This document shows positions 1-60,090 of a DNA stretch of 64,000 bases, in pieces; within the stretch, counting starts at the first letter, position 1, and every line of letters begins with the position of its first letter. Source of the DNA: a virus; the IMG/VR virus record IMGVR_UViG_3300028284_000001. One strand, written 5' to 3'. The notes beneath the pieces were generated by a model. The model did no database searches and was not told the DNA's origin. It saw nothing but the letters and a program-made list of their open reading frames with translations. The position numbers were made by a program, and so were the translations under genes.

Positions 1-733
1 TCTCTTTAGTTTCTTTATTAAATCTTTCTAATACAAATGTTTGTAATGTTTTTCCATCATGTATATTAATAATAAATCCTGCAACTTCTTTAGAAAGATC
101 GTTCATTAAAGTAGATTGCTTTAAGTTCTCATTAAAGATTCCATAAACACTTCTTGTAAAATTAGGTCTATCTTTATTTTCATACTTATCCGTATATTCA
201 TTAATACTAGTAGATAACATTTCTTTAAGACCGTCCTTTTGACCTGAATGTAAAAAGCCTTCAAAAATAACTGGAGGTCTTTGTACTTCTAAAAGATCTG
301 CCCATTTATTTAATATTTTAGTATCTCTAATTACTTTTCTAACTTTATTAGGATTAGATGGTTGTAATACTTGGATATGTGTTAACACTAAATTAGATTT
401 AGGTAGTACATCATATTCAATATCAATAGTTTTGTTATCTCCTAAATATTCAAAACCAAACTTCCAATCAAATGGCATTTCTTCTACAGAATCAGAAGCA
501 ACTGTTTTAAAGTGTCTAATTGCATTTTCGTAGTATCTTACAATAGTACGATCTACTACATTCATCTTATCTTTAGAACCTGATTTATAGAATGCAAATT
601 CAGAACCTTCTCTTTTAGCGTGAAAAGATGAACCATCAATTTTTTCTGTTACAACACATTTGTTTGATAACAGTTTATCAATGTCATTAATATTAGATCC
701 TTCAAAATATGTTTTTAAATTCTGTAGTGCCAT
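1..733 (-). CDS. RNA-ligase-like nucleotidyltransferase (Rnl2/ATP-dependent ligase fold), runs off the window edge
   Basis: Not in ORF track; my translation from ATG at 733 gives MALQNLKTYFEG...CVVTEKIDGSSFH...KFGFEY, with ligase motif I KxDG. ATG overlaps the TAA of the upstream gene. Confidence 0.7.
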   Translation of the reverse strand, partial: MALQNLKTYFEGSNINDIDKLLSNKCVVTEKIDGSSFHAKREGSEFAFYKSGSKDKMNVVDRTIVRYYENAIRHFKTVASDSVEEMPFDWKFGFEYLGDNKTIDIEYDVLPKSNLVLTHIQVLQPSNPNKVRKVIRDTKILNKWADLLEVQRPPVIFEGFLHSGQKDGLKEMLSTSINEYTDKYENKDRPNFTRSVYGIFNENLKQSTLMNDLSKEVAGFIINIHDGKTLQTFVLERFNKETKE

Positions 734-2004
734 TATCTTCCGTATTTTATGATACCCATTAGCTGGTTAATCGCAGCAAAAGTACCGGTTAGTTTAAAGG
801 TTTTTCCTTTAAATTTAAAGACCACTCCTTCTGTTGGGATGATCGACTCAATACCACCAATTCCCTCTAGTCTTTTTAGTTCTTTTTCAACCTTTGCAAT
901 TTGAGTAAGGTCGCCATTCTTTTTAATCTTGCCAGCTTCAGTTCTAATCTGATTATGTAATCTTGCTTTTTCAGCATCTGGATTAGCAGCTACAAAATTA
1001 GAAGCGTTCTTTAAAACATCTGCACCTAACTCTAAAAATAGATTCTCAAAAGGTAAAATGTTTTCTTTATACTTCTTATTTCTTTGACCATCAAAATCTT
1101 TAACAGCCTTATTTTGTTCCGGTGTTAATTCCTTCTTTAATGCAGTTAACTTAAGCGTCTGCTTATCTAAGTAAGCCCATCTTAAAAGTAAACCCTCTTT
1201 GTGTGCAGGTTCTAAGTCTGCAAAGTTCTCTTCGATTTGGCCTCTCCACCACATCTCGTGATACATTTTAACCTCATCAGTATCTGATAGACTATAAGTA
1301 TCTCTTAGTTTATTTATCGCCTTTTCGTAATAGCCTACTCTATCATCAAAGTTAATGTCTTTTCCTAACTTTAAAATTTGAGGGGGAATTATTGTAAACG
1401 TCTTTTGAACATCTGACTTTAATTCTTTAAGAGCTTTAACTAGTTCTGTAGCAATATTTTGTTTTCCAGTTTGATTACCTTCACCATCAGTCTCTACAAT
1501 ACCATGAAATTGTATAACATCTCTGTCATAATAGATAACATTAGGGTTTTTAGAGTAAATTAGTTCCATGTTAACGAAATTTAATCCGTTCGCGAACATT
1601 GATTGGTCCTTAAGCGCTGGGAGCGCCGCTGCTAGATCTTTAGCAGCAAAGATATATGTTTCTTCAACCAGCTGTGAGGCATGACCAGTGAACATCGTAA
1701 TGATGCCTGCTAGATCAAGTGGGTTTATCATTTGCCCCTTATTTCTGGCAAACATTGCTTGACCATCTTTTACAGTTGCAAATAGGTTTTGACCATCAGT
1801 CTTTTCAGTTGCAGCCTCTTCGAAATCTAGTCCACCCTGTAATGAAGATTTAACAATAGTCTTGAAATCTGCAAAAGTTAATGAGTGGTCATCGAAGGGG
1901 TGCATCATGTGTCCTGCTGCTCCACCTTCAAATACGAAAGAGTCCAAGTTGTTCACTTGGATTTTCTCGTTTAAAAATTCTGTAAAATTAGTGTATATCT
2001 TCAT
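733..2004 (-). CDS. Ligase-fold nucleotidyltransferase (DUF6267-like) with putative capsid-targeting leader
   Basis: GGAAGHMMHPFD, TEKTDGQN (motif I) and C-terminal EGVVFK...FKLTG (motifs IV/V); leader MKIYTNFTEFLNE. Confidence 0.65.
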   Translation of the reverse strand: MKIYTNFTEFLNEKIQVNNLDSFVFEGGAAGHMMHPFDDHSLTFADFKTIVKSSLQGGLDFEEAATEKTDGQNLFATVKDGQAMFARNKGQMINPLDLAGIITMFTGHASQLVEETYIFAAKDLAAALPALKDQSMFANGLNFVNMELIYSKNPNVIYYDRDVIQFHGIVETDGEGNQTGKQNIATELVKALKELKSDVQKTFTIIPPQILKLGKDINFDDRVGYYEKAINKLRDTYSLSDTDEVKMYHEMWWRGQIEENFADLEPAHKEGLLLRWAYLDKQTLKLTALKKELTPEQNKAVKDFDGQRNKKYKENILPFENLFLELGADVLKNASNFVAANPDAEKARLHNQIRTEAGKIKKNGDLTQIAKVEKELKRLEGIGGIESIIPTEGVVFKFKGKTFKLTGTFAAINQLMGIIKYGR

Positions 2005-2024: not shown

Positions 2025-3458
2025 TTATCCTAATGATGCTGTTAATGCACCGACAGCAGCTCCGTAATCGTCACCGTGCTTAGACAATAATCCGTCTACA
2101 ACTTCTTGTGCTTTTTCTTCGTCAAATTTATCACCGAAAGCTTTTCCTAAAACTGAGAAGGCATACTCTTTAAAATCTTCATCAGACTTTACTTCTGCTT
2201 CGTTAGTAGCTTCAGTTTCAGTTTCTTCAGTTGTAGCTTCAGTTTCAGTTTCTTCAGTTGTAGCTTCAGTTTCAGTTTCTTCAGCACCTTCTTCTACAAC
2301 TTCTTCTTCTTTAATAACTGGAAAGTTCTTACCATTAAATTCAAATTCTGCAGCATCTTCTTCAATTGCTTTAGCTCTTGCTGCTAAAAATGCATTGCCT
2401 TCGTTCATTACTGACTCGTTAGCCCATATTAATTCAAATGCATCTACTATTTTTTGTGCTTGTTGAGAATAACCAAATCCATCTAAGAATAAAGCCATAC
2501 CTTCAACAATACCGATACCAGACCATCCTGCAGCGTTAGCTAATCCAGAATAATGATTATCTAATAAACTCATGATTGATTTTTTACCAACTGGAACTTC
2601 TAAACCACCTAGGTTATCGATCTTTACTGAAACAGTAGTAATCTTACCACCAAGTGCTTTACTTACTGGATCTTTATATGAATGGAAGTTAGCGTCTGTT
2701 AAAGATTCTGATAATAAATATCTACAAACTCCTAATAAGAGCTGACCGTCCATTAATGCAGTGTGATTCGTAAAGAATGATTCTAACCATTTAGATACTT
2801 TCTTAGCATCTCTTAAATTACCCTTAGAAGGTTTAAATGATTCATTGATTATCATAGATTCAAATGCTGGGACTAAATCGTAACTATCATAAACATCAAC
2901 CATATACCATTTCTTATCTGTTTCAGAATATAGGTAGATAAATTCAGCTCCACCGTTATTAGCGGCATCTTTTACGAACTTCTCAGTATCTTTCATATCT
3001 CCGTCAGTAGTGGTCTTGTCGCCGTAGAATTTAATATCGTCTACATTTGCTTCTAGACCTGAACCACCCCCTTTCTTCAGTAGAGTGTCTACTGCCTTTC
3101 CATCTTTGTAACCCTTTTTAATTGTAGGTAACATGTGGTCTGGGTAACCATCATAGTGCATATACACTGTTGAGATTTTTCCGTTCTTTTTGATTTTACC
3201 GATTTGTGATCTTGTACCCTCTTCAATGATCGCTATTGATTCTGATATTTCAGAACTACCTAACTTTTGATAGAATGTATGTCTGTCTTCTTCTTTAAGT
3301 TCTTTAATAGAAGTTACTCCGAACTCTCCAAGTAGATTTTTAAACTGATCTGCAGCTACATTTCTTGCAGCTGATTGTTCTTCTTCTAATTTAGCGTTAG
3401 CTAGCTTTTTAGCACCATGTGCAAAATCTTCAAAAGATTGTAATTTTAATGATCCCAT
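2025..3458 (-). CDS. Multi-domain putative internal head polyprotein
   Basis: Domains GTRSQIG..YMHYDGYP, GNAFLAARAKA..FEFNGK and others separated by IIEE / IINE / VMNE / TNE; late motif upstream at 3493-3501. Confidence 0.6.
   Translation of the reverse strand: MGSLKLQSFEDFAHGAKKLANAKLEEEQSAARNVAADQFKNLLGEFGVTSIKELKEEDRHTFYQKLGSSEISESIAIIEEGTRSQIGKIKKNGKISTVYMHYDGYPDHMLPTIKKGYKDGKAVDTLLKKGGGSGLEANVDDIKFYGDKTTTDGDMKDTEKFVKDAANNGGAEFIYLYSETDKKWYMVDVYDSYDLVPAFESMIINESFKPSKGNLRDAKKVSKWLESFFTNHTALMDGQLLLGVCRYLLSESLTDANFHSYKDPVSKALGGKITTVSVKIDNLGGLEVPVGKKSIMSLLDNHYSGLANAAGWSGIGIVEGMALFLDGFGYSQQAQKIVDAFELIWANESVMNEGNAFLAARAKAIEEDAAEFEFNGKNFPVIKEEEVVEEGAEETETEATTEETETEATTEETETEATNEAEVKSDEDFKEYAFSVLGKAFGDKFDEEKAQEVVDGLLSKHGDDYGAAVGALTASLG
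2206..2284 (-). repeat. 27-bp coding tandem repeat, ~3 copies (TEETETEAT)
   Basis: gtagcttcagtttcagtttcttcagtt units start at 2206, 2233 and 2260. Confidence 0.9.
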
Positions 3459-3492
3459 GTGAATAATTTTATTTTATTATTTTAGTATTGTA

Positions 3493-3501
3493 TTATATAT
3501 C
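3493..3501 (-). promoter_or_regulatory. Late-type promoter GATATATAA
   Basis: Motif recurs upstream of more than 10 virion-type genes in the window. Confidence 0.65.
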
Positions 3502-7677: not shown

Positions 7678-7707
7678 CTTATAGTTGTACAATATACAAT
7701 AGTTTCA
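7678..7707 (-). promoter_or_regulatory. Middle-type promoter TGAAAC-N18-TATAAG upstream of gp32
   Basis: Recurring bipartite motif. Confidence 0.6.
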
Positions 7708-7875
7708 ATTAAATGTTAAGATTGCTCCAGATGGCTCCTTCCATTCCCCGTCCTTTAGCTTAATCAGCCCTGATTTGTGTAGTAACTCTGATGCTTCCTT
7801 TTCAGTAAGCTGGTTCGCTGCCACCATTTTTTGTAGGATCGTATTGAGGCGAAGGTAATCTATAGTAATCAACAT
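7705..7875 (-). CDS. Small hypothetical protein (start revised to MLITIDY)
   Basis: The longer ORF start at 7923 lies inside a promoter motif (7904-7932). Confidence 0.5.
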   Translation of the reverse strand: MLITIDYLRLNTILQKMVAANQLTEKEASELLHKSGLIKLKDGEWKEPSGAILTFN

Positions 7876-7903
7876 ATCAATTAATACTTTGTTTATTATA
7901 CTT

Positions 7904-7932
7904 ATTATATATCTGAATTTCATTTTGTTTCT
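7904..7932 (-). promoter_or_regulatory. Overlapping middle-type (AGAAAC-N17-TATAAT) and late-type (GATATATAA) motifs
   Basis: Both motifs read directly from the sequence. Confidence 0.5.
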
Positions 7933-9620: not shown

Positions 9621-10172
9621 TTAATCTATTTCTAATCTCAGGTCTAATTTATTATAGACAAATGTACATTCAAATGTAGCAAAGTCTGCTACGTTCTCAG
9701 CCATATTAAGATTTAATTCATTTATTGAATTCATAATGATTCCAGTAAATTCCATATATGCTACTGAAGCTCCTTCGGCATCTAATATTCTTAGAGTCAT
9801 AGGATCTATATAAGCCTTTTTAGTAGACTTAGCATAATAATATAAAAGAGTGTCCATCATTATCCAATAGTTAATAAAACCATCTAATAATTGAAAGGTC
9901 ACTGTAAATTCTCTTGTAATAGTATTTTGAATTGGCACTGAACCTCTATGATTTCTTATTGTACCATCATTATCTGATTGGGTAATTGGATCAAATGCTA
10001 CACCCGGAATATTAAGACCTTGTATAGAATAATTTACAAAATCAATAGGTTCTGCTAAAAGTCCACCTGGAACTCTGTTTAAATACTTCTTGTATTTTTC
10101 AGAAACTTCCTTTGGTATAAACAATCTAGGGAACCTAAAGTCGTATGCGTTATTTCTGCTATTTAATATCAT
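9621..10172 (-). CDS. Tail tube terminator/completion protein (T4 gp3 / tube fold)
   Basis: LNIPG, FTVTFQLLDGFINY, LRILD and FECTFVY match the gp3/gp19 pattern. Confidence 0.6.
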   Translation of the reverse strand: MILNSRNNAYDFRFPRLFIPKEVSEKYKKYLNRVPGGLLAEPIDFVNYSIQGLNIPGVAFDPITQSDNDGTIRNHRGSVPIQNTITREFTVTFQLLDGFINYWIMMDTLLYYYAKSTKKAYIDPMTLRILDAEGASVAYMEFTGIIMNSINELNLNMAENVADFATFECTFVYNKLDLRLEID

Positions 10173-12244
10173 TATCCAATAGTAAATTTACCTTTAGTAA
10201 TCATAGTTTCATCTGTGCCATTATCTATACTAATATAGAACGAGGTTGTTTTCATACCCCTAATGCTCCCGGCATTAGCTTTATTAATTTGGAATAAAAC
10301 TTCACCTTTACCCATATCAATATCTTTATTATAGATGTGGTTAAATTTTAAGTCAGTAGTACCATCCTCAAATGTAAGAACAACTCTTTCGGCATTTTCA
10401 AATGAAATCATTTCAAAATCATCCCCTCTTTTCTTAGCTATTACAAATTTATAGTAAGATGCAAAAGGAGGTATACTAATAGATAAATCACCTTCATTTA
10501 CAAAATCAGATGTATCAAACTCTTCAACATCTTTTCTAATTGGATTATCACCAGCTCCAACTAGATTTACTGTAGCTGAACTAGCAATTACATTATGTCT
10601 TTCGATAAATGCTGGAACTGTTTTAACAGACCTAGGTAAATTATCTGTAATAAATCCTGCAATAATTTTGTTAGTCGCTAGGTTAGGTAATACATTGTAT
10701 ACTTCTGTTAATACATTTGGGCTATCAATTTTAATTGATGATAATCTTTTACCGTATTTAGCAGCTTGATCTATTGTCAAACTAGCTCTTTTTACAATTT
10801 GAGTATTATCTGTTTGGTTGTATATTCTCATAGTTACTTCTATAGAAAAATTAACAGCAATATTAGCCTGATTAATTACAGGTCTAAACTTAATTGGAGT
10901 GTTAAAATCTTCATATTGAGTAAACTGAGAAGTGTATGATTTAATGTTAGCTGTACCTATTTGTTCAAATACATCAACATCGTATAGAACTACAATATCG
11001 TCAGACGAAGTTCGAATTCTATTTAAGATATGTCCTTCAAAATTATTAATTGAATTATCTTTCTCTCCGTAAATATTAAAGTAATCACCATCGGCTGCAT
11101 CTTCTACAACTACGGTAAAGTCAGCAAATTCGTCTTCTCGAGAAACTGTAAATAAGTTTTCTTCTCCTGTATAAACATAATCAAATCCTTCGATCGTTCT
11201 AATAGAATCTAATAAAGCAAATCTAATTCCATAGTTTGCAGTTGGGTTTAAATCACTTGAACCTGGTGTTCCATCTCCATAAAACCTATCATCAAACTCA
11301 GAATTCTGATTTACTAATGTAGGTATTTTAAGATTAATATATTTTGACCACAAAGTCTCACCTAAAATAAAAGGCTTAGGGTTTGAAAATTCATAATTAC
11401 TTGTATTAAGATATACAAGCTGTGTTAAATAGTTCTTAAGACCTGATGTTCTTTCTGCTGTAATTTCAAATAAGAAACCAGCCTTATTTCTTGCGGCAAA
11501 GCTAAATCCAGATTTTAAATGTAATCTAACTGAATCATAAACAATAAAATTAATATTAGCAGTAGCTTCTGTTTGATAATTTAAAAGATCGGCCTCATTA
11601 CCACCTGCCCAACCTGGTGCATTATTAATATAATTATGCATTTCATAAGCTCCTGTAGAATCATAACCTAATAAAGCATATTTAGTAGAGTCGCTAGCAT
11701 CTTGTACATCAACTGCATGATATCTACCTATTGTTTGATTAATATCATTTCCTGTTGCTTCATCCGGAGATGCAAAAAGAGGATTAGCTCTTGTGTCAAC
11801 TATAATTTTACCACCTATTAAACCAGGATAACTATAAGATATTTTACCATTTATAGTAGGAGTAAATTCTCCAAGATTGGTAACTGATGAAAACGTGTAA
11901 ATACCTAAAGCACCTGAGATTGCAAAATCAGCAGGATTAGCTAAGGCACTTAAATCAAATTTATATGTTTTACCACTTTGTAAAAGCAATGTTCTAGCTG
12001 CAAAGTTCTCAACCGCAATATAGCCTGAAATTTCAGTTACATCAAAGTTAACTACCGCACTACCTAATTCATTTATTAAATGTCTAGATTTATATGGATC
12101 TTGATCCACCGTATCTAAAAACATTACCTCACTACCGTTATCATCAACTTCGATTTTAAACTTCTCTAAATCGCCTTGATCGTGATAAATAAACTCTAAA
12201 AGTATATCTTCGTCTATTCTGAAATATCTACTTGACTGTGCCAT
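10172..12244 (-). CDS. Putative virion structural protein
   Basis: 690 aa, beta-rich, translationally coupled within the tail module. Confidence 0.5.
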   Translation of the reverse strand: MAQSSRYFRIDEDILLEFIYHDQGDLEKFKIEVDDNGSEVMFLDTVDQDPYKSRHLINELGSAVVNFDVTEISGYIAVENFAARTLLLQSGKTYKFDLSALANPADFAISGALGIYTFSSVTNLGEFTPTINGKISYSYPGLIGGKIIVDTRANPLFASPDEATGNDINQTIGRYHAVDVQDASDSTKYALLGYDSTGAYEMHNYINNAPGWAGGNEADLLNYQTEATANINFIVYDSVRLHLKSGFSFAARNKAGFLFEITAERTSGLKNYLTQLVYLNTSNYEFSNPKPFILGETLWSKYINLKIPTLVNQNSEFDDRFYGDGTPGSSDLNPTANYGIRFALLDSIRTIEGFDYVYTGEENLFTVSREDEFADFTVVVEDAADGDYFNIYGEKDNSINNFEGHILNRIRTSSDDIVVLYDVDVFEQIGTANIKSYTSQFTQYEDFNTPIKFRPVINQANIAVNFSIEVTMRIYNQTDNTQIVKRASLTIDQAAKYGKRLSSIKIDSPNVLTEVYNVLPNLATNKIIAGFITDNLPRSVKTVPAFIERHNVIASSATVNLVGAGDNPIRKDVEEFDTSDFVNEGDLSISIPPFASYYKFVIAKKRGDDFEMISFENAERVVLTFEDGTTDLKFNHIYNKDIDMGKGEVLFQINKANAGSIRGMKTTSFYISIDNGTDETMITKGKFTIG

Positions 12245-15880: not shown

Positions 15881-18800
15881 TTATGACTTTATTTTTACCA
15901 TAGGTCTAACTTCGTAAGAGTAGCCTAATCTTTTATTATATATCAACCTAAAATTAAGAGGCTGTTGTTCGTGTGATTTAAACGTAAAGTTTATATCATT
16001 AGAGAATGCTCCATCGTCTAAATTATCAATGCTGTCTGTTGATAAAATTTCAGAGAATTGACCCTTTCTTCTACTTGTGTATAATTTTATTTGATCTAAA
16101 TTAAATGTATTAAGTAGGTTGTTTTCAACGTATAATAACGCATCATCTTTAGTTGTTGTTTTGTCACCTGCAGAATTAACAGCAGTTACAAATTTATTTA
16201 TTGAATTTAGTACACCATCTGAAGATAATAACTTCTTAAGCGTCGATGTAATATAAAAATCCATATAAATGTAATCCTTATTTTCAAATGATACTACATC
16301 ATACTTTTCATCACCGTTAGCTAAAATTCGATCTTGCTGTTCTTGTGTTTTAGTAGCATACGAAGTAAAGTTAGTAATATTATATGAATCTTTTATCTTC
16401 ATAATAGTAGAGCCTAAATAAGATCTTTCTTCTTTAGTTTCAAAAGTACCAGGTACTTGTTCAAATAAACCACCGGACAAACTTCTAGTATAATAGTTTT
16501 TATCCCAAGAAGACTTAAATACATTTATATCTTTTTTGTCTATTGTAACCTCACCGATTAAAGGATAAAGAGGTAATTTATCAGTAGACTCAGATAGTTT
16601 AGTTACTGCCGCAGCATTAGTTTCATTTACTTTTCTGTAAAAATGATTTTTAATAATACCCCATCCATTATCATGTATGTTACGATCTTGTATGTAACCT
16701 AAGTTAAATGAAGTTCCACATCTATTATATTTCTTATAGTAATCTCTAGCCAATTCAACTTCTTTAGCATTTGTTAATGAATGCTTATACATTGATTCTT
16801 CAAATAAGATTTCAGTTGGGTTAGCAGTAGACTGTAAAGTGTTTGTTTTAAAATGAGTATATGTGTCAGTAAAAGTTACAATCGGATTTGTTGATATTGT
16901 ATAATCACCATTATGTCTAACTAAGAATGGATAATATGTATCACTTACAGATAATTCGTAACCTATTGTACCTTGTTTTAATTTAAACGTTTTAGGCTTT
17001 TCTTCGTCTGACACTGTAACTAACATAGATTGTTTAATTACTTCTACTCCACTTTCGAATTGAATTTCAAATCTATTAGAATTAATAGCACCATCAATCT
17101 CAACTGTTGTATATTTAATTGAACCATCATTATTCTTTAATAAATCAGACACCGCTGATACTGACAGACTGCCTAAGATCGAAGTGAAGGCATTTTTACC
17201 CCCGCCTTTATATACATAAGTAGCAGACGTTTGAAGATAACCAGCAATATTAGAAACATTAACCGGGTTGCCGTTTAAATCAACAGGGGCTGATGTTAAA
17301 GTAAGTTGAGCTTGGTCATCAATAGATGCAATCTTTAATTTAAAAGTAACAGGACCACTCGAGTCTTGCACCGTTACATATATGTTTCCAAATACTTCAT
17401 TTTCATCTGGATTAATTTGATCTAAGAATTGAGGTAATCCCCCATCAACATGATCTATTCCACTCGCTATTAAATAATCAGCAGCAGTTGGATCTGTAAA
17501 ATTAATGTCATTCAGATTTAAAGCTCCGCTTATAGCAACGTCAGAATAACTAAAGTTTTCTGTCTCATGGTTCCATACAAAGCTGTGATTCATTTCATAT
17601 AATAGTTTCCTATTTAAAGCACCATCAATCCATAAATCATCCATAGATATTGTAATTAAAAATACAACAAATTCAAACTCCTTATTTTGAATAACTTCAT
17701 ATTCAATGTCGTTCGTAGCTTGTCCACCTCTAACCATAACTAAAGTACTAAACTTATAGCCATTAAATTCAGAAGATTTCACAAAATCATTAGTTGTAAT
17801 ATTTTCAAATTCTTTTCTATTCTTAAAAGAAACTTTAATACCTTTAAATAAAGTACTACCAAACGATGCGTCGTTACCGCCTGAAACATTTGTATATTTC
17901 TTTTGTAAATTTGTTTTAATAAAAGATTTAATACCGTTACTATCAGTTTTCTCAAAACCTTCAGTTACCATAAATCTATCAAAGTAATTATATGAAGTGC
18001 TCTTAAAGTGAGATGCATTTAATTCAAAACCTTCTAAGAAGTTTACATAACTAAACGTATCATTAAGCTGATCGTATTTTAAATATTTTGGTACATTATC
18101 TAAATAAAACCACTCATGTGTCATACCTAGTCTATCTCTACCTTCAGCATCAAAATCTGGTGAGAAGTTAGTTCTTCCAAATGCTTCGTTTGAGTTTAAA
18201 TGATAACCCTCTTCTCTTACAGTCGTACCATCTTTTAATACCCACTTGTTAATATTAGGAGTTACTCTAGATCTTACTGCAAATTGCTTAAGATTATTTT
18301 CTTGTAATCTATCATATTCACTCCATAGTTTAGATTCGTTATATGAATCCAATCCTTCTTCTGGTAAAATACCTCCAATACCAGTAAAGTAATTAACAGG
18401 CTCATCTTCAAATTCACTATCGAAAACGGTTAATGTGTTAGTAGTACTTTGTTGAGGTTCATAATTAATATTAGCCGGAGTTTCAAATTCTAATTCTTTT
18501 AGATCTGAATTTGATATATCATAAAAATCAAAATCCATATCATGAATATCGTACGCTGAAAATAAACCAATCCTAGCAACATTATCTGCATATACATTTT
18601 GCTCTCCAGAAGCTAAAGTGTTTATGTCTTCTAAAATAATTTTATTGTATATAGTATCAGCTCTTTCTATATCTTCCACTATATCAATAACTTTGTTGTA
18701 CACATTGTCTGAATTTGTAGCAATTAAATCACCAACATTAATGTCAGCAACAGAATCTTTAGTTACTAATATAGATTTCCCAGCAGAATTACCGCCGTTC

Positions 18801-24088: not shown

Positions 24089-24125
24089 TCAGTTTTATCT
24101 TATTTATAGAGATCTTTCGTCTCTA

Positions 24126-24134
24126 TTATATATC
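24126..24134 (-). promoter_or_regulatory. Late-type promoter GATATATAA
   Basis: Recurring motif, intergenic. Confidence 0.65.
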
Positions 24135-35669: not shown

Positions 35670-36512
35670 TTATGAGTGGAACATCCAGTCCACGCCTTCA
35701 TCGCCTTTGATTTCTTCAACAATTGACTCTAATTCGGTGTCTCCCATGTCTTTTATTGCTCCATAATCAAATTCAACATTACCAGGTAATGCAAATTTAA
35801 AAATACCTAACTTAGCGCCAAGTGATTGTTTAATCTTAGCACTTACATATCTAAAAAATATCTCGTCACTGTACAATGCACAATCTGAAATAGTTTCATA
35901 TATGTTTAATATCACATCTCCCTTTGGAGTATCACCTAATATCTTTAACTTACCATCTAATCTAGTGTAGTTAAAGCTAATAGGATTTTCCATAATTTGT
36001 CTAGACATATCAGCTAAAGAAGCATTCAATACATAATATTGTAATTCTTCTGCTGCTTCTGCAGGGCCTGAGCCATCGTACATTCCTCTAAACAACATTT
36101 TTTCTAAAGCAAAGTCTCCGCCACCTTGGAATCTCACATCCATGCCTCCACCTGTACTGTTAAATCCGGATTTTAAATCAAATACACCAAACACAGAATA
36201 TACTCCGCCACCACCGTCAGCGCCAGCTTTTGGTAGATTTAAACATCTAGTGTTTTTAAAGTATGCTGATTGAAAAACTGCAGCAGGGATATGATAATAG
36301 TTTTCTGCAACAGAATCTTCATATTGTTTATAGAACCATTTCTTAGCTCTATTAATAATATTAACAATTTCTTTTTGTGGTAAATTAACAGGCACCATAC
36401 AAGCACCGGTCATATCATCACCGATCTCCTGTAAGAATTCGTTTAAACAGTTATTACCAAAATCTCTTTCGGTACCTAATCCATTTTCACTGCCGCTTCT
36501 AATTTCGCTCAT
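35670..36512 (-). CDS. Neck/head completion protein (T4 gp13-like)
   Basis: FFRYVSAKIKQSLGAKLGIF...LPGNVEFD..AI...G..ELE C-terminal pattern. Confidence 0.7.
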   Translation of the reverse strand: MSEIRSGSENGLGTERDFGNNCLNEFLQEIGDDMTGACMVPVNLPQKEIVNIINRAKKWFYKQYEDSVAENYYHIPAAVFQSAYFKNTRCLNLPKAGADGGGGVYSVFGVFDLKSGFNSTGGGMDVRFQGGGDFALEKMLFRGMYDGSGPAEAAEELQYYVLNASLADMSRQIMENPISFNYTRLDGKLKILGDTPKGDVILNIYETISDCALYSDEIFFRYVSAKIKQSLGAKLGIFKFALPGNVEFDYGAIKDMGDTELESIVEEIKGDEGVDWMFHS

Positions 36513-39161: not shown

Positions 39162-39205
39162 GTATTTTTATTTAAAAGGTTATCTTATACTATCTTAGTA
39201 ACATA

Positions 39206-39282
39206 TTATATATCTGCTAAAATATTTGTATTATCCAGCTTTGCTCTTTCCTAAATTTTAGGTGTTTAACAGTTTATATATC
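39206..39282 (-). promoter_or_regulatory. Two tandem late-type promoters upstream of S1
   Basis: GATATATAA at 39206-39214 and 39274-39282. Confidence 0.6.
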
Positions 39283-53341: not shown

Positions 53342-53971
53342 TTAAAACTCAAATGGGATATAATCATCATCTTTATCCATACCGTACCAGACACCTTTGT
53401 TTTGCCAGTAGATCCATCCATACTTATCGTCGATAACTACTTCAAACTTACCCTTTGGCATCTCCACGCTCTTCTTAGGAGCCCTGGCGATATGCTTAAG
53501 TACAGGTACACCATCTTCCCATGTTTTCTTAGTAGATCTAGCATCAACTATTGCGCCATCACCAAATCCATGGTGAAATTCAGCACCTTCGATCTCATCA
53601 GCTAATAACATAGTCGGAGTTTTATCTGATTCATTAACTACTGATTCGTTTTCAGGCATTACTCTTTTATACTTAGCTTGTAATTCTTTAAATTCATCTT
53701 TAAGGTTAGAAGAGATTTTCTTCTTAATACCCCAGTTATCTCCAAAGATTAGTGGAGCTACAGCGCCCATACCAGCAGTCTTAACTTGCTTCTCGTATTT
53801 TCTAGCATAAGTAGAGCTATCAAACCAGTCTAATGCAGCCTGAGCCATATCCTTAGATATCTTAACACCTTCTATTTCAGAAGTACTACCTTTAACTACC
53901 ATTTTAAATAGAGTTTTAGCAGGAGCTTGTCTTGCCTCATTTAATTCGTTTATTGACTTGATATATTTCAT
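53342..53971 (-). CDS. Two-domain putative internal head protein
   Basis: Leader MKYIKSINELNE; internal NESVVNE linker. Confidence 0.65.
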   Translation of the reverse strand: MKYIKSINELNEARQAPAKTLFKMVVKGSTSEIEGVKISKDMAQAALDWFDSSTYARKYEKQVKTAGMGAVAPLIFGDNWGIKKKISSNLKDEFKELQAKYKRVMPENESVVNESDKTPTMLLADEIEGAEFHHGFGDGAIVDARSTKKTWEDGVPVLKHIARAPKKSVEMPKGKFEVVIDDKYGWIYWQNKGVWYGMDKDDDYIPFEF

Positions 53972-56785: not shown

Positions 56786-58837
56786 TTACAGGGTTTCAAT
56801 TGCATTATCTTTCATCCACTTCTCTAGTTTCTCAACAGCAATATTAAATATTTTACTTCTGTTAATAGACATTCCAAATGAATTAAAGTATTCTTTCATC
56901 ATATAGTATGCTGGTTCTATCTCTTCTTTATTAGCAATTCGATCTTGGATATGTTTACTAACCTCATACGCAGCTTCAGCACCTACAAACACAAAAGCAG
57001 TATAACCTGTTAAGTCGTTCCAATGTAGATCTGATAATTTGTAACCTATTTCACCTAGTTCTTTTTTTCTTGCAGCTGTATCGAATTTACGATCTCCCAT
57101 TTGGTTTAACCAAAAAGACATGTAGTTAGATTCTTTACCATACATCTTTTCTACAAATCCTCCAGCAACAAGTTCTTTTATTTTAACTCCAATATACTTA
57201 GGGTATTTAATCTTTCCATACTGCTTAATAAATCTATCGTATTCGTAGTTACCGAAATATTCATTAAGGGTTTTAACAAATCCACTTTTAACAACTACTG
57301 TCTCATTTGCTTTTCTCATATCAATCCAAACTCTAATAATATCTGCATAGTCTTTAGAAGTTAAGCCCTCTTTTTCACCATGTGTAGTTTCACTATTACG
57401 ATCCCACATTTTTTGAGCAAAAGCATCGATGTTACCTTCTTTAAAAGTCATAACAGCTCTTTGAGTACCATTATCTAATAATTGAAATGTTTCTTCTTTT
57501 TCATCATGTGGATCTAATCTCCAACCAGCTGAATTATTAACTCTAATATCTAAACCACTAGAGTTACTATCAACCACAACAGTCCAAGGACCTTCTGATT
57601 GATATGTTTTACCTTTTTTATATTTGATTTTACCTTCATTAACTGATTCTTTAAGACCTAATGCTTTATTAACTAGATCTTCAATCACACTAGAGTAATC
57701 ATCCTTTAAAGCCCATTTAATTGTTTGGCCTTCACTTCTTGCTTTCTTGTTTATCCATTTAAGGTGTGTTGCATCAGTAAGAAAATCAGAAGCTTCTTTT
57801 GCAATTCCTTTTGGATCTATTTTCCATTCATCAATTGTAGTACCAAAGTTATTACCGTATGTAGAACCATTAGTTCTTTTAAGGTTATTGATTCCACCAA
57901 TCTTAATGTATATGTCATTATTAATAGGCATTGCTTCAAAGAAAACTACATCTCTTTCTTCTGGGTTGTTTTCACCAGATACTTGATCGATAGCATAAGT
58001 ACTATGAACTCTCCATGTAGGTTCGCCTTTTACATTGTACGCTGCTGAGTGTGTATCTGCACCGAATTCAGAAGCCTTTAACTTATATGCTTTAGCTTCG
58101 TTAACTGATTCAGTAAATCCTCTTTCTTTAGCATCATTCTTTACCCATTCTCTATCTTTAGATGAAAGCTTTTTAAAATCTTTATCAAATTTATGATGTG
58201 CAATTAATTCATAAACATCTTCTAATTCTACTGACTCGCTAAATAGAGTTTCTCCAGTATTAGACTCAACACTTATTACAGCATTAGGATATTGTTTTTG
58301 TAATTCATTAAATACGGCAGGAACCGCAGCTGGTGTATCAACTAATTCTTGTTTAACAACCATACCACTATTAATTACTACAATACTTACAGGATAACTT
58401 CCTTTCTTTGCAGCTTTATGGATTGCGCCTCTTTTAGCTTCACCTATTGGTTTAATGTACTTCATTTGGTTTGACTCTTTCATAGCGTCTATTTCTTTTG
58501 ATTTTTCAATTGCCCAATCAACACCTTCATCTCCACCCCAGATTAACCAGGCTACGTAGCCTCTGTCTTTCCATGGAGTTGCTTTTAATTCAGGTTTGAT
58601 TGATGAGTTTTTTCTGTGTCTATTGAATGCGGACATTCTTTTAACTGTATCTGTACTAAGGTTTTCACCTTTAGCCAGTTGATGAGCTCTTGCCCAACCT
58701 ACTGGAGTTCCAGCATCAACTTCGTCTCTACCATGTTCCTCTTTCCAGTCAATTGCCTTTTGAGCATTCTTCTTTGCAGCAGCAGGATAGTCATTCCAAG
58801 TATCTTCTTCGTTTAATACAGATTCTATGTACTTCAT
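56786..58837 (-). CDS. Multi-domain putative internal head polyprotein
   Basis: Leader MKYIESVLNE, internal MKYIKPIGE, two ESVNE and one KTLNE linker; first domain GTPVGWARAHQLA..AWLIWGG. Confidence 0.7.
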   Translation of the reverse strand: MKYIESVLNEEDTWNDYPAAAKKNAQKAIDWKEEHGRDEVDAGTPVGWARAHQLAKGENLSTDTVKRMSAFNRHRKNSSIKPELKATPWKDRGYVAWLIWGGDEGVDWAIEKSKEIDAMKESNQMKYIKPIGEAKRGAIHKAAKKGSYPVSIVVINSGMVVKQELVDTPAAVPAVFNELQKQYPNAVISVESNTGETLFSESVELEDVYELIAHHKFDKDFKKLSSKDREWVKNDAKERGFTESVNEAKAYKLKASEFGADTHSAAYNVKGEPTWRVHSTYAIDQVSGENNPEERDVVFFEAMPINNDIYIKIGGINNLKRTNGSTYGNNFGTTIDEWKIDPKGIAKEASDFLTDATHLKWINKKARSEGQTIKWALKDDYSSVIEDLVNKALGLKESVNEGKIKYKKGKTYQSEGPWTVVVDSNSSGLDIRVNNSAGWRLDPHDEKEETFQLLDNGTQRAVMTFKEGNIDAFAQKMWDRNSETTHGEKEGLTSKDYADIIRVWIDMRKANETVVVKSGFVKTLNEYFGNYEYDRFIKQYGKIKYPKYIGVKIKELVAGGFVEKMYGKESNYMSFWLNQMGDRKFDTAARKKELGEIGYKLSDLHWNDLTGYTAFVFVGAEAAYEVSKHIQDRIANKEEIEPAYYMMKEYFNSFGMSINRSKIFNIAVEKLEKWMKDNAIETL

Positions 58838-60074: not shown

Positions 60075-60090
60075 TTATTATATATCAAAC

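Follow-up and report, generated by a model that had tools for sequence, protein, structure and literature searches.

A putative head-cargo polyprotein with exchangeable, cleavable modules in an uncultured T4-like phage

The stretch of viral DNA analysed in this study, called the window below, is 64,000 nucleotides long (IMG/VR record IMGVR_UViG_3300028284_000001). Its source is a large, uncultured marine myovirus of the T4-like kind, in which genes for baseplate wedge, hub and sheath were recognised, and its G+C content is about 33%. The lineage probably infects Flavobacteriaceae. No near-identical DNA was found in cultured phages, and the phage is without a close cultured relative. Related contigs are 101-205 kb long with completeness ratings of 33-75%, which puts the probable genome size at about 270-300 kb. 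On the minus strand, a single frame at 2025..3458 encodes a protein of 477 amino acids and 53 kDa (477 codons plus the stop codon at 2025-2027), and this gene is the proposed head-cargo polyprotein gene discussed here. On one side it is flanked by a ligase-like pair of genes (2..2004), on the other by a cluster of helicase, primase and gp32-type SSB genes. The neighbours are replication and repair genes and not head genes, a setting that counts against a role of the product as head cargo.

The predicted protein has the architecture C-D-E-A-B, in which short connectors with predicted cut sites separate the modules (all positions in this paragraph are on the minus strand). Module C (residues 1-80; 3219..3458) is the putative N-terminal address module, with helices at residues 9-45, 56-68 and 71-79, and it is always the first in the chain among the relatives that carry it. 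The sequence LQSFEDFA near its start (residues 6-13; 3420..3443) holds a CTS-like aromatic pair, F9/F12, and its end is linker 1, ESIAIIEE (residues 73-80; 3219..3242), with a predicted cut after E80. Module D (residues 81-206; 2841..3218) has an alpha/beta fold and the motif T-R...Y-x-H-x-D-G-Y-P of the phrog_1987 / T4-GC 66 family, and it closes with linker 2, ESMIINE (residues 200-206; 2841..2861; predicted cut after E206). The next unit, module E (residues 207-353; 2400..2840), is a mostly helical and confidently folded domain that ends in linker 3, ESVMNE (residues 348-353; 2400..2417; predicted cut after E353). The core of module A (residues 354-383; 2310..2399) is a mini-module of the form GNAFLAARAKAI...FEFNGKNFPVIK, consisting of a helix and a beta hairpin. 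It is followed by an acidic spacer of ETEATTE repeats (residues 384-420; 2199..2309), the place where relatives hold zero to four extra cassettes. Linker 4, ATNE (residues 417-420; 2199-2210), forms the end of this spacer, with a predicted cut after E420. Module B (residues 421-477; 2028..2198), an acidic three-helix module reading AEVKSDEDFKEYAF...ASLG, makes up the C-terminus. The masses of modules C, D, E, A and B are 8.9, 14.1, 16.0, about 7 and about 6 kDa, respectively. All of them are acidic to neutral (pI 4.0-6.3), and this was counted against the cargo reading. For module E, a comparison with a structure atlas gave an uninformative best score of 0.77 and no known relative.

The original prediction had quoted four junctions for this frame, and all four are present in it: SESIAIIEE/GTRS (E80), FESMIINE/SF (E206), NESVMNE/GNAF (E353) and ATNE/AE (E420), where the slash marks the predicted cut. 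The pattern ES[IVLM]..[NE]E occurs three times in the polyprotein and three times elsewhere in the window, in all cases on the coding strand (frames of at least 80 aa). The other three copies are found in the N-terminal tag of a second proposed polyprotein (56786-58837), in ORF 53342-53971 and in ORF 35670-36512. The two proposed polyproteins of the window have no modules in common, and only their connectors are alike. Across 31 aligned sequences, with identities as low as 39%, E206 never varies, and the conservation of E80, E353 and E420 is at least 90%. The full-length AlphaFold2 model, built on a 31-sequence alignment, has pLDDT values below 50 only at residues 1-7, 71-80, 202-206, 349-354 and 384-418, and the rest is a confident fold. 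Three of the four junctions are inside these low-confidence stretches, and the fourth (417-420) is at the end of the last one. When module D was modelled alone (residues 81-206), pLDDT was 94.7 and pTM 0.88, and its last six residues, SMIINE, were uncertain. The pLDDT of linker 2 in this single-module model is about 60; the free-standing marine forms of the module end at the equivalent of PAFE.

A non-circular test of the junctions was carried out, in which modules were found by their own internal sequence and the residues upstream of them were then read. Glu was at P1 in 149 of 149 distinct contexts of module D, 108 of 108 of module B, 121 of 122 of module A and 44 of 44 of module F; these contexts are phylogenetically related, so the total of 422 in 423 overstates their independence. 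P3 was I, L or V in all 149 contexts of module D and V, I, M, L or T in nearly all contexts of A, B and F. P2 showed no restriction (E, N, T, L, K among others), and P1' was G, A or S. Both GAA and GAG are used for the P1 Glu, and many codons for P3, which indicates that the constraint acts on the protein and not on the DNA. Since the motif is short and as many as 15 phi-x-E sites occur in the polyprotein, seven of them inside confidently folded parts, the motif by itself is no predictor of cutting. Several independent lines agree, and they confirm the connectors as borders of units at the level of sequence comparison and structural modelling. Each connector also has two potential cut sites placed 6-7 residues apart (..E/S-x-x-x-N-E/), as seen in linkers 1-3 and their equivalents in relatives, and the leader FINE/SQEINE/G likewise has two. 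With sites paired in this manner, a short spacer peptide may be excised and the C-terminus of the upstream module may be trimmed.

Residues 81-193 of module D align to positions 2-121 of the 128 positions of the phrog_1987 profile (E 7e-16), and by this match the module is a full-length member of phrog_1987 / T4-GC 66. The homology search proposed earlier for the GTRS module was run with phmmer, using residues 81-206 against 1.84 billion representative proteins, and gave 818 hits. The TR start could be placed in 114 of the best 150 of these hits. Among the 114, 31 copies are free-standing proteins, about 105-220 aa in length apart from one with 398 aa, and all of them begin with M-(S/A/G)-T-R. 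A further 82 are embedded or bear a leader, and in every one of them Glu stands directly before (G/A/S)TR; the starts of the embedded copies range over residues 16 to 636. One copy begins MEL-STRS. The profile match and the free-standing copies bear out the resemblance, stated in the original prediction, to a family of standalone genes beginning M(A/S/G)TRSRIG. An upstream extension of the homology, which would have contradicted that prediction, was not seen: no alignment to a free-standing member passes upstream of G81, and in the leader-bearing marine forms the similarity upstream is the 3-4 residue cut motif only. The free-standing forms have a small second residue, so that loss of their methionine would leave (S/A/G)-T-R-S, the same end as a cut after E80 would produce. 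The claim that this cut recreates a native N-terminus therefore holds for the sequences compared, as a predicted match of two ends.

When 53 members of the D family were aligned, T2 and Y19 were invariant and H21, D23, G24, Y25, G50, Y95 and W104 were conserved in at least 90%. Homologues were found in 147 isolate phage records, where they are free-standing; these records include cyanomyoviruses and KVP40-like, GAP32-like and CcrColossus-like phages. Named members are S-PM2 p016, annotated as T4-GC 66, and KVP40.0229, and members were also found in Streptococcus prophages. Gene neighbourhoods of free-standing members were read in S-PM2, KVP40 and a Streptococcus prophage. In S-PM2 and KVP40 the genes are leaderless and located within arrays of small ORFs, which fits a non-virion origin of the module and gives indirect support to the idea of an ordinarily cytoplasmic protein. 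As to function, neither the whole protein nor the 53 members matched a Pfam family above threshold, module D had no sequence match in the PDB, and a Foldseek search of the PDB gave nothing at E <= 0.001. Matches in BFVD were uncharacterised phage proteins only. A resemblance to anticodon-binding or Brix-like alpha/beta folds was considered and rejected, as the best VIA-align Z was 4.5, below the trusted level.

A gp21-type protease is present in the lineage. Peptidase_S77 (PF03420) was found above the Pfam cut-off in five of five related large contigs, all of which carry the homologous gene or a module D gene, with E values of 1e-12 to 7e-16; within the 64-kb window there is no Peptidase_S77 gene, and that the protease was seen in relatives only counts against the cargo reading. 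In the relatives, a fusion joins the S77 domain to a scaffold-like ORF (about 640 aa) that directly follows the portal gene. This ORF, in contigs L081-L085, has a long scaffold-like region with tandem ..QYSEHVAEK.DQ.I.. repeats and an acidic tract. Judging from these ORFs, protease and scaffold appear to be one gene in this lineage.

The rule that the connectors follow is, by comparison of motifs, that of the T4 gp21-type phi-x-E site. In the T4 sequences, AEIGG comes directly after FLTE in gp23 and S directly after LLRE in gp24, and we take gp21 to cut gp23 after E65 (FLTE/AEIGG) and gp24 after E10 (LLRE/S). In Alt the cuts fall at ITE-6 and LTE-619, and T4 and the giant phiKZ-like phages have in common that cleavage takes place on the C-terminal side of Glu (PMC5694885, PMC10052503). 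The same kind of motif opens the major capsid protein of the relatives (contigs L088, L089 and L091), which begins MANLINE/AEIR..PIIEE/ATGINE/S. Three phi-x-E sites within capsid residues 1-26 suggest a short propeptide, in comparison with the 65 residues of that in T4. Mapping of the T4 gp23 cut site onto this capsid protein was tried and abandoned since the propeptide regions do not align, and for that reason only the presence of LINE/A-type N-terminal motifs can be stated.

The polyprotein starts with MGSLKLQSFEDF, in which the aromatic pair F9/F12 (SFEDF) is conserved and F9 is invariant. Unlike the T4 CTS, this pair has no directly following phi-x-E, a point against the cargo reading. In T4, CTS residues 4 and 7 (Y4/F7) direct targeting, and residues 8 and 10 direct processing (PMC9026906). 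An Asp at position 10 of the T4 CTS blocks the cut. The small D genes of related marine phages carry the leader MNNIKNFNDFINESQEINE, followed at the cut site by GTRS, and in one case an extra module lies between leader and D with the same joint. This leader, F-N-D-F-I-N-E (pattern F-x-x-F-I-x-E), matches the T4 CTS MKTYQEFIAE. Since the joint between leader and D is like the internal joints of the polyprotein, the same type of joint would connect leader with cargo and cargo with cargo. By analogy with the T4 signal, module C would be an extended form of such an address.

More than 800 near-length homologues of 389-751 aa were found. Residues 1-385 are conserved among them, and beyond this point there are zero to four extra cassettes, each closing with ..ES-x-x-(N/T)E. 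Insertions in relatives sit exactly at the joints. For 186 proteins of the family, the chains were split at the motif and the pieces were clustered at a reciprocal coverage of at least 70%; 38 recurring module families emerged, which are combined in about 90 architectures in the 186 proteins, with a core of C-D-E-A-[variable]-B. When homologous pieces with different left neighbours were compared, the median unaligned N-terminal overhang was 0 residues. Cassette L occupies three different places (D/E, A/F and A/B), and cassette N can follow E, L or A. In relatives, module B is present in up to three copies, and there are cases in which a CTS-like leader is followed by B alone. BLAST HSP end-points were too noisy as a detector of breakpoints, with an enrichment of about 2-fold near motifs. 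HSP ends are blurred by the acidic repeats and the similar linkers, and segment clustering and anchor-defined junctions were used instead.

The most promiscuous cassette is module A, a 30-residue unit of the pattern GNAF.AAR..AI..G...F.F.G..YPV that is often tandemly repeated; 11 different left neighbours and 20 different right neighbours were counted for it. A second and longer polyprotein family was also observed, with MNFNDFLNE-type leaders and a module J of 230-400 aa at the end (examples are L071 ORF +8307 with 956 aa, L050 ORF +15508 with 835 aa and L053 ORF +7598 with 956 aa). Copies of D or E occur in other order in the polyproteins that end in J, which indicates that cassettes move between precursor genes.

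Upstream of the polyprotein gene, the element GATATATAAT is located on the minus strand at 3492..3501, 34 nt before the ATG, and overlaps the stop codon of the upstream helicase gene. The window contains six exact copies against 0.55 expected, all on the coding strand; on the minus strand they are at 3492-3501, 7904-7913, 15935-15944, 24125-24134, 39205-39214 and 60077-60086. The five copies inspected are just upstream of the polyprotein gene, of genes for tail-type proteins of 937 aa and 2735 aa, of the S1 gene and of ORF 60074, and the sixth (7904-7913) falls within a listed frame (7705-7923). The variants GATATATATT and GATATATAAA precede other structural genes (37827, 47877 and 56742). The T4 late promoter TATAAATA was rejected as the promoter here, as it has four coding-strand copies against three on the opposite strand and only one is upstream of a gene. 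A looser form of this T4 pattern, ATATATAWW, showed no enrichment. From its placement, GATATATAAT may be the core of a late-type, phage-specific promoter that differs from TATAAATA of T4. With such a promoter, the location of the polyprotein gene among replication genes would be compatible with a function of its product in the head.

We consider it probable that the 477-aa protein is a processed head-cargo precursor of the T4 internal-protein kind. The polyprotein would be made late, from its own promoter-like element, and the CTS-like aromatic pair of module C would bring it into the prohead scaffold core. There, the gp21-type S77 prohead protease would cut after Glu at E80, E206, E353 and E420, possibly with an extra cut at the ..E/S site that opens each connector. 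These cuts would release C, D, E, A and B as separate small proteins inside the head, the GTRS module with the N-terminus of its free-standing gene, and the released proteins would presumably be delivered together with the DNA. We infer in this scheme the late expression, core targeting, cleavage, head retention and injection of the polyprotein products. The connectors double as standard joints by which whole cassettes can be gained, lost and moved, so that the set of proteins placed behind the one address tag differs among relatives. A wider proposal appears plausible rather than probable: the gene may represent a plug-and-play loading device of widespread marine giant T4-like phages, in which cleavable joints admit any small phage protein, including ordinarily cytoplasmic early ones such as T4-GC 66, so that it is carried in the head on a shared address and freed with its native N-terminus for injection.

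The joints are also the point at which other explanations must be weighed. If the protein were an ordinary multidomain protein of the 'polyvalent' type that is uncut in action or packaging, the connectors would be hinges or docking motifs. Variable multidomain phage proteins that are delivered as single chains are well documented (PMC5512222), phi-x-E is present within the folded modules too, and cleavage is a prediction. However, a hinge needs neither an invariant Glu at position -1 of four unrelated modules, as read in the upstream contexts (422/423), nor a residue-exact coincidence with the native start of the free-standing D family, and a hinge motif would not recur in short CTS-like leaders. 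We therefore regard the uncut chain as unlikely, the more so as a search with Pfam detected no known polyvalent-protein domain or peptidase in the protein. The joints might also be maintained mainly for recombination without a proteolytic role, or another protease might cut the polyprotein in the cytoplasm. The replication and repair neighbourhood and the evident exchange of cassettes at the joints agree with these ideas. On the other hand, the synonymous P1 codons (GAA, GAG) and the varied P3 codons point to selection on the protein, the joint motif is that of the protease family found in relatives, and no other protease candidate was seen, so that both ideas are very improbable.

In a further alternative, the polyprotein would belong to the core or the scaffold accessories of the prohead, as T4 gp22, gp67 and gp68 do, and its pieces would mostly exit the head at maturation and serve assembly. 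In T4, core proteins undergo cleavage at many Glu sites, and the resulting fragments leave the capsid (PMC5694885). Modules C and B are acidic, helical and near-universal in the family and the spacer is highly acidic, as would suit such a protein. Modules D and E, in contrast, are modelled as compact globular domains with confident folds, D is free-standing in the 147 isolate records with no scaffold role known, and the fast turnover of the internal cassettes is closer to that of hypervariable internal proteins than to that of a scaffold. A role limited to assembly is quite unlikely for these reasons.

The proposed head-cargo precursor shares with T4 IPI, IPII, IPIII and Alt an aromatic pair in the putative N-terminal tag, the phi-x-E motif and a lineage with a gp21-type protease, and, as in the T4 internal proteins, unrelated and fast-changing cargo bodies are placed on a common tag. 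Tagging by the CTS, cutting by gp21 and hypervariable internal proteins are classical T4 biology, and T4 Alt is trimmed at both ends (PMC9026906, PMC5694885, PMC3012670). The T4 internal proteins have one cargo per gene behind one short leader, whereas several cargoes are chained in one frame here, with predicted internal copies of the cut site that separate the cargoes and at which cassettes are swapped. The tag differs as well, as it is a module of 80 residues with no immediately following cut site. Many cuts after Glu per precursor are known for T4 gp22, gp67 and gp68 and for the propeptides of phiKZ and SPN3US head and ejection proteins (PMC5694885, PMC10052503). In those cases the fragments are disposable and one mature protein is left, but the pieces of the present polyprotein are predicted to fold independently and at least one of them belongs to an autonomous family. 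The family phrog_1987 / T4-GC 66 itself is free-standing and leaderless in cultured phages, whereas module D is embedded between predicted cut sites.

Polyvalent proteins (Iyer et al. 2017, PMC5512222) are similar in that many unrelated small domains occur in variable architectures and delivery with the DNA is proposed. Effector domains can be recognised in them, and an MPTase peptidase is often part of the chain (PMC5512222), whereas no Pfam domain was detectable here and separation would depend on the head protease, acting in trans at standard joints. The scheme is also reminiscent of retroviral Gag, with one address, several products and release by the particle's own protease after assembly; there is no homology and the protease family is another, so this is a likeness of working and not of membership. 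A limited literature search found no description of chained autonomous cargo proteins between prohead-protease joints that are shuffled as cassettes. Relative to the second proposed polyprotein of the window (56786-58837), the present gene contributes a residue-exact junction with a free-standing family and a far larger comparative basis.

Proteins injected with phage DNA act before phage gene expression, and in T4 they include counter-defence factors. If the proposed scheme is true, a cleavable chain of interchangeable cassettes on one address would be a general way to diversify this first-strike payload, and the arsenal that the phages inject would be reshuffled rapidly. In ocean viromes the system is abundant, as reflected by the more than 800 near-length homologues and by the 818 representative clusters of module D alone. 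About 38 protein families would be marked as candidate early-acting effectors. The exact N-termini predicted for the present protein (GTRSQIGK, SFKPSK, GNAFLAAR and AEVKSDEDFK) are searchable in existing viral metaproteomes. At module D the joint is exact to the residue, which is an uncommon kind of evidence for the importance of a free N-terminus in this family. This natural design may also serve engineered cargo delivery by T4.

Two further observations concern single loci. In related contig L035, at about 9962-11650, two separate frames take the place of the homologous gene, one ORF with module D and another of the type A-A-B, which may be due to a frameshift or an assembly error. In the window, the downstream neighbour of the polyprotein gene (733-2004, minus strand) opens with MKIYTNFTEFLNE, a complete CTS-like pattern F-x-x-F-L-x-E, which may point to a small island of genes for head-addressed proteins at this place.
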